Source of the DNA: a virus
Lineage: Duplodnaviria > Heunggongvirae > Uroviricota > Caudoviricetes
Strand: one strand, 5' to 3'
Length of the DNA: 4,362 bases
Virus record (IMG/VR): IMGVR_UViG_2663763220_000004
The notes beneath the pieces were generated by a model. That model was given only the letters and a program-made list of their open reading frames with translations, was not told the DNA's origin and did not search any database. Shown piece after piece: positions 1 through 4,362 of this stretch (its first letter is position 1; each line of letters begins with the position of its first letter). The translations under genes were made by a program, and so were the position numbers.

Positions 1-44
1 TCCTTCTGATGCCATTCTATTTCAGGAAGGAGTGTCCGTTAAAC

Positions 45-239
45 TCAGGCTACCTCACCCGTCCCGGATACCGAGAACGTTTCGTCCAGCAACTGGAGAG
101 AGTTCGACGGTGGCATCATTGCCCATGCCGGAGGCGCTGGAGGTTTCGGCTGAGGATGGCACAGGGCATTTTCCTTTGACGAGCACCCGACCACCATTAT
201 CAAGCTTGCGCCGAAGAGCATCATTTTCAGCTTTCGCAT
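45..239 (-). CDS. Rz1: Rz1-like o-spanin (outer-membrane lipoprotein), encoded in a different frame within the 3' half of Rz and running 10 nt past the Rz stop
   Basis: 64 aa, [24 protein letters not shown]...: hydrophobic signal-like N-terminus ending in lipobox-like VVGC, then a Pro-rich stretch ([16 protein letters not shown]), as in lambda Rz1. Out-of-frame overlap with Rz is the classic spanin arrangement. Confidence 0.8.
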
Positions 240-459
240 CAGCTAACTCCTTCGTGTATTTAGCATCGAGTGCATCAGCATCACGCTGGCGCTGCTGCAT
301 GTCAGTAATGGTTGCGTTCGCCAGCTTCAGTTCTCCGGCGTTTTTGTCGCGCTGCTCTTTGTAGGTAATGGCGTTATCACGGTAATGATTAACAGCCCAT
401 GACAGGCAGACGATGATGCAGATAACCAGAGCGGAGATAATCGCGGTGACTCTGCTCAT
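55..459 (-). CDS. Rz: Rz-like i-spanin (type II inner-membrane protein with periplasmic coiled coil); start taken at the internal Met (MSRVTAI...) rather than the ORF-track start at 474
   Basis: N-terminus [34 protein letters not shown] closely resembles lambda/DLP12 Rz. The ATG at 459..457 overlaps the endolysin stop (ATGA overlap), implying translational coupling. C-terminal ~45 residues diverge from the lambda Rz I recall, and the protein is short (134 aa). Confidence 0.8.
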
Positions 460-989
460 TGATCTATCCCCCAACAGGCTAATGCGCTTTCCTGGTCACG
501 ACGAATAACCTGTCCATAGCAGTTATTTGAACGTATGCGGCAATCGCGCCCAACATCTTTTATCCACCAGCGAATCGCCTCGCATGCGCCCTTACGATCA
601 CCGGCATTCAGCCGCTTATAAAACGTCGACGGGAAACACTTACCGGGGCCAATGTTATAGGGGCAAAATGACGCTATACCCGCTTTCTGGGGTTCGGTCA
701 GAGGTACTTTAATATTGCGCTCCACCCATGCCAGCGCCTTATCACGTTCAATAGCGTTAACCTGGTCACATTTTTCCTTCGACAGCTTCATTCCCGGTAT
801 GACAGGCTTACCATCCACCATTGTGGCACCACGACAGATGGTCCATATGCCAGAACCATCACGGTATGCCGTTGTGTGATTACCCTCTTTTTCGTTCAGA
901 AACTGGTCAAGTATCTGGGGAGCAGACGCGCCTGCGGCAATCAGCGCCAGAACAGCAGCCGACAGGCCGTATTTGATTTTTGCGCTCAT
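456..989 (-). CDS. R: SAR-type endolysin (T4-lysozyme-like / GH24 muramidase, phage 21 R / Stx-phage R type)
   Basis: 177 aa. N-terminal Gly/Ala-rich weakly hydrophobic segment ([18 protein letters not shown]), typical of signal-anchor-release domains. Catalytic motif E-x8-D-x5-T seen directly in [17 protein letters not shown]. Overall strong resemblance to endolysins of 933W-type prophages, from memory. Confidence 0.9.
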
Positions 990-1054
990 GGATATTTATC
1001 AGGATTTATCGGCAACAAATAACGAGCCAACTTATATACGCCTTTTAAGATAAG

Positions 1055-1684
1055 TCAGCCCCGGCTGGATCCAGTCATCAGGCTCTTTCTTAAAGGGGGA
1101 GTATTGAAATCACGAAGAAGAGCCTCCCGCACCGCAGCATCCATGTCTGCACCACTGGCAAGTGCTTCAATCTCTGCCGCCACCTGCAAATACCCCATGC
1201 AACGGCCAATGCGTTTCATAACTCTGGTGTTTTCGTCTTTCAGGCATCTGATAGCGAGATTAATAATTTTCAGGCAGTGATGATGCGATGCCCGGACAGG
1301 TTTTCCGTTCTCATAAACGACGAACTCACCCTCTTCACAGGAAACCCTGAAAGGCCGATGGGGTTCCTGGTCTTTATCCGGTGCAGACGCAATAAAATCA
1401 CTTTTATGCTCTTCCTCTCCGGCACTGTTAACCGTAATGACGTACTCAGGCCGCAGGTAAGCCGCCTCTTTTTCTGACAATGCGGCCGGTAAAAACTTTT
1501 CCTGCAAAAACTTCATAAAAGTCTCGTGAGCGACTTTGTGGCAGTAATCGTAAATCGCCGCATAATGCTCATCGCGGCGTTTGTTTTCATCTTCAGAACT
1601 CACCAACGCCGACAATTTTTTATTAAGCTCAGTGATTTCATTTTCCAGGTGATTGAATCGCTGATTCATTTCTTCATGCTTCAT
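1055..1684 (-). CDS. Hypothetical 209-aa soluble protein of unknown function, inserted between holin and endolysin; no family recognised
   Basis: Intact ORF with a good SD (GGGGAGAG about 6 nt upstream of the ATG) lying inside the 3' end of the upstream holin copy, with stop-to-start spacing of 3 nt. No predicted TM segment or signal peptide. Acidic, coiled-coil-like N-terminus (NQRFNHLENEITELNKKLSAL), a central beta-like segment (YVITVNS...FRVSCEEGEFVVYENGKPV), and a His/Cys-containing C-terminal helix (RASHHHCLKIINLAIRCL). Confidence 0.7.
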   Translation of the reverse strand: MKHEEMNQRFNHLENEITELNKKLSALVSSEDENKRRDEHYAAIYDYCHKVAHETFMKFLQEKFLPAALSEKEAAYLRPEYVITVNSAGEEEHKSDFIASAPDKDQEPHRPFRVSCEEGEFVVYENGKPVRASHHHCLKIINLAIRCLKDENTRVMKRIGRCMGYLQVAAEIEALASGADMDAAVREALLRDFNTPPLRKSLMTGSSRG

Positions 1685-1687
1685 TAT

Positions 1688-1865
1688 TTACTCTCCCCGT
1701 GCAGCCTTACGCTTGTCTTCTCTTATTTTGAAATACAGATTCGTCAGATAAGTCAGAAGCCCCAGAAGCAGACTTCCCAGCACACCAATCGCAGCCCACT
1801 GTGATGGCCTGACCTGATCCAACCACTGCAAAAACCAGTAGCCGGCACTGCCGGCGGAGGGGCCG
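1688..1865 (-). CDS. Second S21-type holin copy, 3' portion only (5' end lost in the N-run); divergent from the copy at 1889..2104
   Basis: My translation in the holin frame gives ...[58 protein letters not shown]. This differs from the upstream copy at four residues (T/P, S/R, V/L, F/L) plus several synonymous changes. The ORF-track ORF 1707..1889 covers this region in the wrong frame. Confidence 0.7.
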
Positions 1866-1875
1866 NNNNNNNNNN
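1866..1875. other. Run of 10 N: assembly or scaffold gap of unknown true length
   Basis: Literal n characters in the sequence. Flanks are a gene start (ATG TCG CCA TCA.. at 1889..1878) on one side and the middle of a holin gene on the other. Confidence 0.95.
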
Positions 1876-1888
1876 AATGATGGCGACA

Positions 1889-2104
1889 TTATTCACCTCT
1901 CGCAGCCTTACGCTTGTCTTCTCTGATTTTGAAGTACAGATTTGTCAGATAAGTCAGGAAGCCCAGAACCAGACTCCCCAGTACACCAATCGCAGCCCAC
2001 TGTGACGGACTGACCTGATCAAGCCACTGTAAAAACCAGTAGCCAGCACTGCCTGCGGAGGTGCCGTAGGCAATGCCCGTTGAAATTTTGTCCATGGATT
2101 TCAT
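1889..2104 (-). CDS. S: Class II pinholin, phage 21 S21-type, with dual-start motif (Met1-Lys2-Ser3-Met4)
   Basis: 71 aa, [71 protein letters not shown]: two TM segments, the first Gly/Ala-rich, and a charged C-terminus. Near-identical to S21 as I recall it. Strong SD (GGAGGTGAGGCT) before the ATG. Confidence 0.9.
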
Positions 2105-2160
2105 AGCCTCACCTCCGCAAATAACGGATGGCGTAGTTTTACACTGAGAAATGAAAGGGA

Positions 2161-2187
2161 TTTGAAAAGAAAAAACCGCAAAAGCGG
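2161..2187 (-). terminator. Weak candidate intrinsic terminator on the minus strand, downstream of the tRNA array
   Basis: Short hairpin CCGC-TTTT-GCGG (4 bp stem) followed on the minus strand by TTTTTTCTTTTC. The stem is short, so this is marginal. Confidence 0.3.
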
Positions 2188-2264
2188 GCGAAACGATATA
2201 TACAATAAGGAAAGCACTCTATCCAACAAACCACTCACAGTTAATCGGAATAAAAGCAGAGTGC

Positions 2265-2337
2265 TTATGAATGATCGCCTGCCCGAAGGTTAGTATTTCT
2301 GCACAGCAATTTTGCAAAAAAAAGCGATCATTCATAA
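2265..2337. repeat. Perfect 14-bp inverted repeat (TTATGAATGATCGC ... GCGATCATTCATAA) with a 45-bp spacer, in the tRNA-holin leader
   Basis: Seen directly: arms at 2265-2278 and 2324-2337 are exact reverse complements. The spacer contains an A8 run and TTGCAA. Confidence 0.85.
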
Positions 2338-2396
2338 CTTAAACGTCTTTCAGTCACTCCGGGATTTCCCATCATCGCAGACTGAAAGACTCTGAC

Positions 2397-2471
<75 letters not shown>

Positions 2472-2474
2472 ATA

Positions 2475-2550
<76 letters not shown>

Positions 2551-2552
2551 AC

Positions 2553-2629
2553 TGGACCGCCACCGGGGACTCGAACCTCGCACACTCAACTTAAAGGGTT
2601 GACGCTCTTTCCTGATGAGCTAGTGGCGG
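2553..2629 (-). tRNA. tRNA of uncertain identity: anticodon loop CCTTTAA, so anticodon would be UUU (Lys) but with C at position 33; alternatively a degenerate Arg-type tRNA
   Basis: Reverse complement CCGCCACTAGCTCATCAGGAAAGAGCGTCAACCCTTTAAGTTGAGTGTGCGAGGTTCGAGTCCCCGGTGGCGGTCCA: acceptor CCGCCAC/GTGGCGG, D-stem GCTC/GAGC, anticodon stem TCAAC/GTTGA, T-loop TTCGAGT, encoded CCA. Unusual features are a 5' C, C33, a 9-nt D-loop and a T-stem mismatch. Confidence 0.55.
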
Positions 2630-2630
2630 T

Positions 2631-2690
2631 TGGTGGCCCTTGCTGGATTTGAACCAGCGACCTGGCGATTATGAGTCGCTCGCTCTCACC
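2631..2690 (-). tRNA. ileZ: tRNA-Ile2-like (gene anticodon CAT, ileX/ileZ type), 5' end truncated by the N-run
   Basis: Reverse complement ...GGTGAGAGCGAGCGACTCATAATCGCCAGGTCGCTGGTTCAAATCCAGCAAGGGCCACCA closely matches E. coli ileX as I recall it (...GCAGGCGACTCATAATCGCTTGGTCGCTGGTTCAAGTCCAGCAGGGGCCACCA). Anticodon loop CTCATAA. The acceptor 5' strand and D-arm fall in the Ns. Confidence 0.75.
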
Positions 2691-2700
2691 NNNNNNNNNN
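2691..2700. other. Run of 10 N: assembly or scaffold gap of unknown true length, interrupting the 5' end of the Ile tRNA
   Basis: Literal n characters. About 16 nt of tRNA would be expected here but only 10 positions are present, so the Ns do not represent true length. Confidence 0.95.
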
Positions 2701-2800
2701 CGCAGGATAATAACGTTACGAAATCAATGTTGCAAGCATTCAAAAATCACCCTTATCTCCTCCACCAGCGCATTCACCATGTCTATCCGAGATAAGTGGC

Positions 2801-2824
2801 ACAAAAAACCCGCTTGTGGGCGGG
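2801..2824 (-). terminator. Intrinsic terminator (tR'-like) between the late promoter and the tRNA array; also looks terminator-like on the plus strand
   Basis: GC-rich hairpin ACCCGC-TTGTGG-GCGGGT (6 bp stem, 2807-2824) followed on the minus strand by TTTTTT (2806-2801); on the plus strand it is followed by TTTTGTTTGCTTTTG. Confidence 0.6.
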
Positions 2825-2878
2825 TTTTGTTTGCTTTTGCCATCACGTACAAAATCGGCAAAGTATCAGATTTGCATG

Positions 2879-2907
2879 AATATATGCCTTTCAATCTACT
2901 TTTGCAA
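2879..2907 (-). promoter_or_regulatory. Candidate sigma70 late promoter (pR'-like) immediately at the 3' end of the Q-like gene
   Basis: Minus strand reads -35 TTGCAA (2907..2902), a 17-bp spacer, then -10 TATATT (2884..2879). About 10-20 nt downstream is a -10-like GATACT (2867..2862) that could act as a sigma-dependent pause element. The predicted ~70-nt transcript would end at the terminator at 2801-2824. Confidence 0.45.
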
Positions 2908-3585
2908 CACTTTGCTTTGAAAATGCCGTCTTTTTTTTGAACGTGTTCTCATTACAAACAATAAAGCCTCACTATCCAGTCGGTGAAAAATGTGTTTCAT
3001 TGCAACCCAGTGACGAGTAAATGTTTTGGACCAGTTTTTAGTTGTCACTCCCGCCAGTAATGCCAGCTCCTGGTATTCATAACCTTCCCCACCAAAAAGT
3101 TCTGCTTTTACTGCCTGCGCCGCCAGCCAGATTAATTTTTTCAGGCGTTCCTGCGTTTTCCCTGCAATTTTTCTGGTACCGGATTGAGCATTAAATTCAT
3201 TCCACGCCCACTGTGTTATCGCGATCTGATATTCCCAACAAATACTCCCGCTGTAACACCACAACAACCAGGCTTTATAGTGCTCTTCAAGAGACAGAAC
3301 AGCCCGCCGCCACGATGATGTCGAAAACTCAACCGGACTGACCAGAGGAATTGACGTCCCCTTCGCCAGCGATTGCTTTCCCGGGATTGGTGGATTATCC
3401 CGCGTTATCATTTTTCCAGTCACTTCATCGCGGTACCGGATTTTTTTACGCCTGTAACGCCCTGTATCGAACATGGCATTCTCTTGCCAGGCTTCAAGCT
3501 GACCTTTTGTTGCCCCACTCAAATCAGCGGTGGCGATAATGAGCTGCTCACGCACAAACTGTAAATACTGGTTATTCATGCGCAC
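2896..3585 (-). CDS. Putative late-gene antiterminator (Q-like), assigned mainly by position; family not confirmed
   Basis: 229-aa ORF directly downstream of rusA (10-nt overlap) and directly upstream of a promoter/terminator pair, tRNAs and the lysis cassette, which is the canonical Q slot. C-terminal region has an HTH-like segment (YQELALLAGVTTKNWSKTF). No similarity to lambda Q that I can see. Confidence 0.5.
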   Translation of the reverse strand: MRMNNQYLQFVREQLIIATADLSGATKGQLEAWQENAMFDTGRYRRKKIRYRDEVTGKMITRDNPPIPGKQSLAKGTSIPLVSPVEFSTSSWRRAVLSLEEHYKAWLLWCYSGSICWEYQIAITQWAWNEFNAQSGTRKIAGKTQERLKKLIWLAAQAVKAELFGGEGYEYQELALLAGVTTKNWSKTFTRHWVAMKHIFHRLDSEALLFVMRTRSKKRRHFQSKVLQK

Positions 3586-3941
3586 CCCAGTTCTGTGATT
3601 TTTATCCCCAGCCGCCCACCAGGAACGAGCTGACCGCGCACAATATTGATTTCATCAAACTGCTCGTCGTCTATAAGTAGTCCAGCATGCGTCAGCGCAT
3701 CCAGCGGTGCCTTCAGGATATTGTCCAGGTCACGACGGCGCTTATCCGGTGGCTCTGCAATAATCTTTATCGCCAGCCTTCCGGACAGGTTTAATTTCAG
3801 TCGCTGCTGGCGAACAATTAGCGCCACATCACGGCGATAACGCTCACCGGCTTTTGATACAAAATATGTGCTGCCACGACGTCGCCAGTAGGTGTTCACC
3901 GTTGGCGGGTAAGGCAAAACAAATTCTATGCGTTCGGTCAT
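3576..3941 (-). CDS. rusA: RusA-family Holliday junction resolvase
   Basis: 121 aa with conserved RusA blocks: LPYPPTVNTYWR, PDKRRRDLDNILKAPLDALTHAG..DDEQ (catalytic Asp cluster), GGRLGIKITELG. Alignable by eye to E. coli RusA (120 aa). Confidence 0.9.
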   Translation of the reverse strand: MTERIEFVLPYPPTVNTYWRRRGSTYFVSKAGERYRRDVALIVRQQRLKLNLSGRLAIKIIAEPPDKRRRDLDNILKAPLDALTHAGLLIDDEQFDEINIVRGQLVPGGRLGIKITELGCA

Positions 3942-4283
3942 TTATGCTTTCCACTTCAGAACACCCGAATTTCTCGCGTGCATTAAAAAACGAATCAGCA
4001 ACAACAACTGACTACCGTGTTTTTCTTCAAAATCTTTTACCCCGGCGTGTAGTTCGTTATGGCATTTACGACACAGCGGAATAACAAACAAATCGTCAGC
4101 CTTTGTTCCCATCCCTCCCAGTCCATGACCAATGATGTGGTGCGGATCATCTGCCTGATTGCCACACGTCATGCATTTCTGCGTTTTTACCCAGCGCGTG
4201 TATACAGGCATCTCTTCCCGTTGTGGTTTCTGGCGCTGGAGATACTGAGCCGGAGATTCCGGATCAACGGCAATGCTGACCAC
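3942..4283 (-). CDS. Small zinc-finger/HNH-like protein typical of the nin region upstream of rusA (possibly DUF1364/YbcO-like); start uncertain (4283, or the internal Met at 4211 giving 89 aa)
   Basis: Motif C-x2-C...DPHHIIGHGLGGMGTKADDLFVIPLCRKCHNELH, i.e. paired CxxC with a His-rich HNH-like core. Its stop abuts the rusA start. The internal ATG at 4211 is preceded by GGGAAGAG. Confidence 0.55.
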   Translation of the reverse strand: MVSIAVDPESPAQYLQRQKPQREEMPVYTRWVKTQKCMTCGNQADDPHHIIGHGLGGMGTKADDLFVIPLCRKCHNELHAGVKDFEEKHGSQLLLLIRFLMHARNSGVLKWKA

Positions 4284-4362
4284 CGTCTCTTCCTGTGGTG
4301 GATTCTGTTGCTGGTGGGCGTGAGGCAGCGGCGCAAGATTTTTTGTGCGCTGCTTCAGTATG

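Follow-up and report, generated by a model that had tools for sequence, protein, structure and literature searches.

The window, by which the whole 4,362-nt stretch of DNA analysed here is meant, is the entire draft record AZPR01000267.1 (GCA_000566245.1). It is composed of three pieces of short-read assembly (positions 1–1865, 1876–2690 and 2701–4362) and two runs of exactly 10 N each (1866–1875 and 2691–2700), and every one of its genes lies on the minus strand. A literature search on the accession (AZPR..., GCA_000566245) found no citing paper. The source organism is presumably Shigella flexneri, an assignment which rests on near identity to chromosomes of that species, among them AE014073.1 (S. 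flexneri 2a 2457T).

Read in the direction of its genes, the window begins with the late region of a lambdoid prophage, referred to as prophage B. The record end cuts a DUF968/HNH-like gene, of which the 3′ part is present (3942..4362; PF06147, E = 4e-47) and which encodes 352 aa at complete loci. It is followed by the genes for a RusA Holliday-junction resolvase (3576..3941; PF05866) and for antiterminator Q (2896..3585; PF06323, E = 4e-91). At 2805–2828 and 2879–2907 on the minus strand, a consensus scan picked out a promoter-like TTGCAA-17-TATATT overlapping the end of the Q gene, and a strong hairpin with T-runs on both strands lies about 50 nt downstream of the promoter-like site. Situated upstream of the tRNA genes, these candidate elements would fit the lambdoid pR′/tR′ layout.

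A cluster of four tRNA genes separates Q from the holin gene. The first of them, with the anticodon CAT (2631..2706; assigned to Met by ARAGORN and to Ile by PGAP), is broken by the second 10-N run; the remaining three, tRNA-Lys(ttt), tRNA-Thr(tgt) and tRNA-Gly(tcc), were identified by ARAGORN at 2397..2629 and are found as the same cluster at a Shigella prophage-B locus. A perfect 14-nt inverted repeat (2265–2278 and 2324–2337, with a 45-nt spacer) was observed between tRNA-Gly and the start of the holin gene. The holin itself is a complete class II holin (pinholin) of the S21 type with a length of 71 aa (1889..2104; PF04971). Piece 2 ends with the first 14 nt (ATGTCGCCATCATT, encoding MSPS..) of an rrrD/R21-like SAR endolysin gene (1876..1889), at which point the first 10-N run begins.

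This first run (1866..1875) is a scaffold join with prophage B on its right and a different prophage, referred to as prophage A, on its left. At the end of piece 1 lies the 3′ fragment of a second PF04971 holin gene, comprising codons 14–71 plus the stop codon (1688..1865). An open reading frame (ORF) of 209 aa (1055..1684; PHROG 1085) stands between this holin and its lysozyme (456..989; 177 aa; PF00959, E = 5e-24), and the gene for an Rz i-spanin of 134 aa follows (55..459; PF03245), the C-terminus of which is altered by an IS insertion. The terminal 57 nt of an IS3-family element (1..57; 100% matches to IS ends) conclude the record. In closed genomes, the order in prophage A is Q′, tRNA genes, holin, 209-aa ORF, lysozyme and an Rz gene cut by an IS.

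The IS end replaces the 3′ end of the Rz gene, leaving 134 aa instead of 155. Positions 59–1865 match loci with intact Rz and positions 1–57 match IS ends elsewhere; at Shigella loci, the latter sequence adjoins, at 100% identity, several 385-aa HTH_Tnp_1/rve transposase genes. S. flexneri chromosomes (e.g., AE014073.1) carry the same Rz-truncating insertion. The prophage-A lysozyme is 35% identical to R21 and has its hydropathy maximum at residues 5–25, where an N-terminal SAR-like segment is predicted.

The 209-aa ORF product is soluble and was assigned to PHROG 1085 (unknown function) with E = 1e-73, and profile searches together with a PDB sequence search returned no Pfam, NCBIfam, PADLOC or significant PDB match for it. 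Structure prediction with AlphaFold2 from the single sequence gave a model too poor for use (mean pLDDT 42). The gene is a conserved one among prophages of Shigella and E. coli, and in ten Shigella chromosomes it occupies the same position; the assembly collection has its exact 209-aa sequence in 3,334 indexed blocks, and an Stx2a-converting phage carries a gene at the equivalent position with 77% DNA identity.

The two holin sequences constitute a direct repeat of 178 nt (1688–1865 versus 1889–2066) with 88% identity and a start-to-start spacing of 201, and the presence of this repeat in the record is confirmed to be far beyond chance. A reading made earlier from the sequence alone (the sequence-only reading) had described them as two S21-type holins lying head-to-tail. 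Their class was borne out, as both copies match PF04971 (phage 21 holin S; cut-off 26 bits), the upstream copy with 121.5 bits (E = 1.4e-35) and the downstream fragment with 97.3 bits (E = 5e-28), the latter over profile positions 10–63 only. They are not two genes lying head-to-tail, however, as only the upstream one is complete. The upstream holin (2104..1889; MKSMDK...) has 71 aa with an intact Met1/Met4 dual-start motif and is identical to the prophage-B holins of E. coli FDAARGOS_944 and of Shigella LR213455.1. The downstream copy begins at codon 14, right at the N-run, and its start codon and first 13 codons are absent. In complete relatives, this gene is full length (71 aa, MKSM); the prophage-A holin was found as a full 71-aa gene at all ten Shigella loci and in FDAARGOS_944. 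The 58-aa product from the piece edge to the stop codon of the truncated copy is on record only from AZPR01000267.1, and an exact-protein look-up of its 47-aa ORF with a TTG start showed this sequence not to be on record.

Over the common 58 aa, the two proteins differ at four residues (T15P, S32R, V46L and F49L), as the sequence-only reading had noticed. Three of these, S32R, V46L and F49L, truly distinguish the A from the B holins of Shigella, but T15P is due to base 1861, which is G in the window and T in every relative. This variant was not found in any other genome examined (5,426 complete E. coli genomes and ten Shigella loci). Since the base is unique to the record and close to the end of the piece, with 5 nt between it and the N-run, it is probably a sequencing or assembly error.

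A Shine–Dalgarno motif and a start codon follow each holin gene, in agreement with the sequence-only reading. The stop codon of the upstream holin overlaps an ATG (TAATG; ATG at 1889..1887) that is preceded by GAGG, while the downstream holin stop codon is separated by 3 nt from the ATG of the 209-aa ORF (1684), which has GGAG ahead of it. The MSPS... product had been taken for the start of a different downstream gene, and it is indeed that of the rrrD/R21-like SAR endolysin. In a Kyte–Doolittle analysis, the holin showed a single clear hydrophobic peak at residues 33–60 (TMD2); the TMD1 region (residues 10–28) remained below 1.0 in this simple profile, as expected for a releasable TMD1. Given the near identity to S21, a two-TMD topology is very likely. 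As to putative SAR endolysin partners, the upstream holin is accompanied in the record by 14 nt of the R21-like gene, which is IS-disrupted in relatives, and the downstream holin by the lysozyme with the N-terminal hydrophobic segment, which lies beyond the 209-aa ORF.

The prophage-B cassette closely resembles that of phage 21. Its holin is identical to S21-71 in 70 of 71 residues (99%), the dual-start M1/M4 motif included, the holin stop codon overlaps the start of an R21-like endolysin gene, and tRNA genes lie between Q and S. It differs from phage 21 in that only 14 nt of the endolysin gene are in the record and that the gene of the Shigella relatives is destroyed by an IS66-family insertion. 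Moreover, the Q protein of the window is of a different family, PF06323, whereas the phage 21 antiterminator is annotated as weakly similar to other Q proteins. In Shigella, prophage B is laid out as DUF968, RusA, Q, four tRNAs, S21-type holin, 17 nt of rrrD and an IS66-family element (GTAAGCGCCCC...), which interrupts rrrD after these 17 nt. The prophage-B lysis cassette is therefore dead in the Shigella lineage, and the endolysin gene having been destroyed there, the cassette is that of a prophage remnant. Beyond the IS66-family element, which cuts rrrD at about the equivalent of window position 1873, the Shigella relatives were observed to carry an IS3-family element and Mu-like tail genes. 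In FDAARGOS_944, the 14 nt continue as a full rrrD gene (MSPSLRKAVAVAIGGG..., MSPSLRK...), the product of which is 95% identical to R21; seven copies of rrrD are present in this genome.

Mapping of the two flanks of the first N-run onto closed genomes placed them at two distant loci. In LR213455.1, window 1–1865 corresponds to about 3,263,923–3,265,787 (+) with two mismatches, and window 1876–4362, identical outside the N-run, to about 1,912,711–1,910,216 (−), so that the left and right parts are 1.35 Mb apart on opposite strands. The corresponding positions in CP182555.1 are 709,169–711,033 (−) and 1,951,183–1,953,678 (+), 1.24 Mb apart and again on opposite strands; the identity to these two chromosomes is 99.9–100% for both parts. 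The closest complete E. coli genome, FDAARGOS_944 (NZ_CP065613.1), contains window 59–1865 with 99.3% identity at 5.022 Mb (−) and window 1876–4362 with 99.7–99.8% identity at 0.651 Mb (+), i.e., 0.70 Mb apart, on opposite strands and in two different annotated prophages. Its prophage A is annotated as tRNA-Ile/Arg/Thr/Gly, holin, a hypothetical protein of 209 aa, lysozyme and lysis protein, and its prophage B as DUF968, RusA, Q, tRNA-Ile/Lys/Thr/Gly, holin, rrrD and lysis protein.

The separate loci are matched almost base by base in Shigella. Ten Shigella loci were read, and of these, eight (e.g., AE014073.1) differ from window 1–1865 at a single base, 1861, and a ninth at two; the match takes in the 57-nt IS end truncating Rz as well as the R32 holin variant. 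In Shigella flexneri, the locus belongs to a cryptic lambdoid prophage (e.g., AE014073.1, about 715–724 kb) with the IS-truncated Rz gene. In the Shigella prophage A, the complete 71-aa holin gene stands behind a PF06530-type Q and a tRNA cluster belonging to that prophage (Met/Ile, Arg, Thr, Gly), whereas the window has the gene only from codon 14 onwards, next to another prophage. Three loci, LR213455.1 among them, match window 1876–4362 without any difference outside the N-run. Comparison of the two tRNA clusters showed a clean one-tRNA swap, prophage B having tRNA-Lys(ttt) where prophage A has tRNA-Arg(tct), with flanks of 95–100% identity, a tRNA cassette replacement on a small scale within a mosaic lambdoid late region.

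A single 71-aa holin per locus was found at all of the 22 complete-genome loci compared (ten of prophage A, ten with the exact RusA of the window, nine of which have the prophage-B layout, and the two of FDAARGOS_944). For a wider survey, a 1,001-nt query across the junction was searched against 5,426 complete E. coli genomes, and the best 60 of 3,177 records were considered. Among the matches listed, six places cover at least 80% of the query, each of them spanning 799–800 nt, which means that one holin is present and both copies in the query align to it. The 60 places listed as matching in two pieces are all about 200 nt shorter than the 1,001-nt span of the query. A tandem holin was thus seen neither among the matches listed from the 5,426 complete E. 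coli genomes nor in 20 Shigella/E. coli loci. In the collection of species-representative genomes, the junction with its Ns had no match, and the 24-nt end of piece 1 had a chance match only, in a GC-rich MAG contig that is unrelated and shows no similarity to the window.

These data bear on the principal claim of the sequence-only reading, a tandem, divergent pinholin duplication with swapped cargo. As a real local tandem, a single prophage would contain holin B and the start of rrrD and, after a short gap in the sequence, a second, possibly complete holin with the 209-aa gene. The record does show both copies in one orientation, in gene order and at a spacing of 201 nt, and both are good PF04971 matches. 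However, no determined sequence joins them, the 10-N run 1866–1875 alone standing between, and a run of this kind has an arbitrary length, as the second one demonstrates (see below). Furthermore, the flanks lie at two loci in three closed relatives with 99.3–100% identity, more than 1 Mb apart in two of them and 0.70 Mb apart in FDAARGOS_944, the arrangement is absent from the closed close relatives and from the survey, and the breakpoints coincide with repeat edges. We therefore regard a local tandem as extremely unlikely, and the duplication claim is not supported. That the two sides of the N-run might belong to different prophage loci had been foreseen as the observation that would speak against a duplication, and it was made in all three closed genomes.

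The second N-run is informative about the nature of both. It stands for 19 real bases (ACTGAGCTAAAGGGCCGGG, plus strand), the sequence being otherwise collinear, and the break between pieces 2 and 3 falls inside the conserved tRNA gene with the CAT anticodon. This join is a true adjacency. As 10 Ns replace 19 bases here, a run of 10 N serves as a placeholder, the length of which does not reflect gap size.

The ends of the pieces at the first N-run were then compared with the prophage sequences. Prophages A and B, which are in inverted orientation to each other, share a near-identical stretch of about 640 nt (95–100% identity) that runs through the tRNA region and reaches 50 nt (16 codons) into the holin gene. 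Within it, exact identity of A and B holds for 121 nt (2055–2175 in the coordinates of the upstream copy). Piece 1 stops at the equivalent of position 2066, which is 12 nt into this 121-nt identity. Piece 2 stops 14 nt into rrrD and 3 nt before the IS66-family boundary, and this boundary is also seen in the independent draft contig AFHD01000002.1 and in closed Shigella genomes. Both pieces thus end at repeat boundaries, with flanks at distant loci. From tRNAs through holin into rrrD, piece 2 has the B allele at all A/B-diagnostic sites, as determined by comparison with Shigella. The counterpart of the shared stretch from prophage A would accordingly be located in another part of the assembly. 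The possibility of piece 2 being a collapsed A/B consensus was considered and rejected on account of these sites.

Recombination between resident lambdoid prophages had been put forward as another option. Homologous recombination of prophages A and B in the tRNA–holin stretch would yield a hybrid late region with B upstream and the A lysis genes downstream, and the inverted stretch of about 640 nt at 95–100% identity offers a substrate for it; the event would invert the intervening chromosome and create the hybrid. The product expected is a single hybrid holin, however, and not a full holin B with the start of rrrD and a fragment of holin A. In addition, the B alleles throughout piece 2, up to and into rrrD, mean that it was a non-recombinant B that was assembled. 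We give this explanation virtually no credence.

A rearrangement mediated by IS elements, or an arrangement of prophages in tandem, could also have brought the lysis genes of prophage A downstream of prophage B, with the N-run hiding an IS66-family element or further sequence. IS-driven rearrangement is common in Shigella, IS66-family and IS3-family elements directly follow holin B in the relatives, and the scaffolder had some reason to link the pieces. Against this, piece 1 ends where A becomes identical to B, which fits a repeat-induced break and not an IS junction; positions 1850–1865 show no IS terminus; and the two loci are separate and mutually inverted in all closed relatives. If it were true, the locus would be a fused two-holin composite of prophage remnants, in which a 5′-truncated holin A follows a holin-rrrD′ stump. 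On balance, we consider such a rearrangement very unlikely.

It is concluded, with high confidence, that the tandem holin pair is a scaffold misjoin of two different Shigella/E. coli prophages and not a real feature. The sequence-only reading had listed a mis-scaffold of two prophages as the last of its three options, and the assignment of the N-run flanks to different loci identifies it as the one to retain. The fixed 10-N runs, the piece ends at repeat or IS edges, the distant flanks and the base peculiar to the record are all shared with repeat-induced scaffold misjoins, and no departure from a repeat-induced misjoin with a fixed-length N placeholder was found.

The misjoin may have come about as follows. 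Assembly of piece 1 would have stopped on entering the stretch shared by A and B, and that of piece 2 where the multi-copy IS begins, the shared stretch having presumably been assembled inside piece 2. Read pairs from the unique 3′ half of holin A would reach back into the shared stretch and could thereby have linked pieces 1 and 2. The true continuation of piece 2 would be the multi-copy IS, which scaffolders would have ignored, and because of this, piece 1 would have been the only unique link from piece 2. The overlap implied by the link, a negative gap, would then have been written as 10 Ns, with the result that the 3′ halves of the holins, 12% divergent, appear twice at a distance of 201 nt. 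As for the true neighbours of the piece ends in the source strain, we infer from the relatives that they would be those seen at the two separate loci.

Even if it were real, the tandem would be a minor curiosity, since IS elements have already disrupted both lysis cassettes and one of the holin copies is truncated. The underlying biology is that of two separate prophage remnants, each with a pinholin gene in single copy. The holins themselves show nothing new, and the lambdoid remnants in which they reside are decayed and riddled with IS elements. The finding is of consequence as a caution for draft genomes of Shigella and E. coli, where short scaffolds can join different lambdoid prophages across N-runs of fixed length. 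Such misjoins create apparent duplications, truncated genes such as the 58-aa 'holin' called here and chimeric prophage maps.
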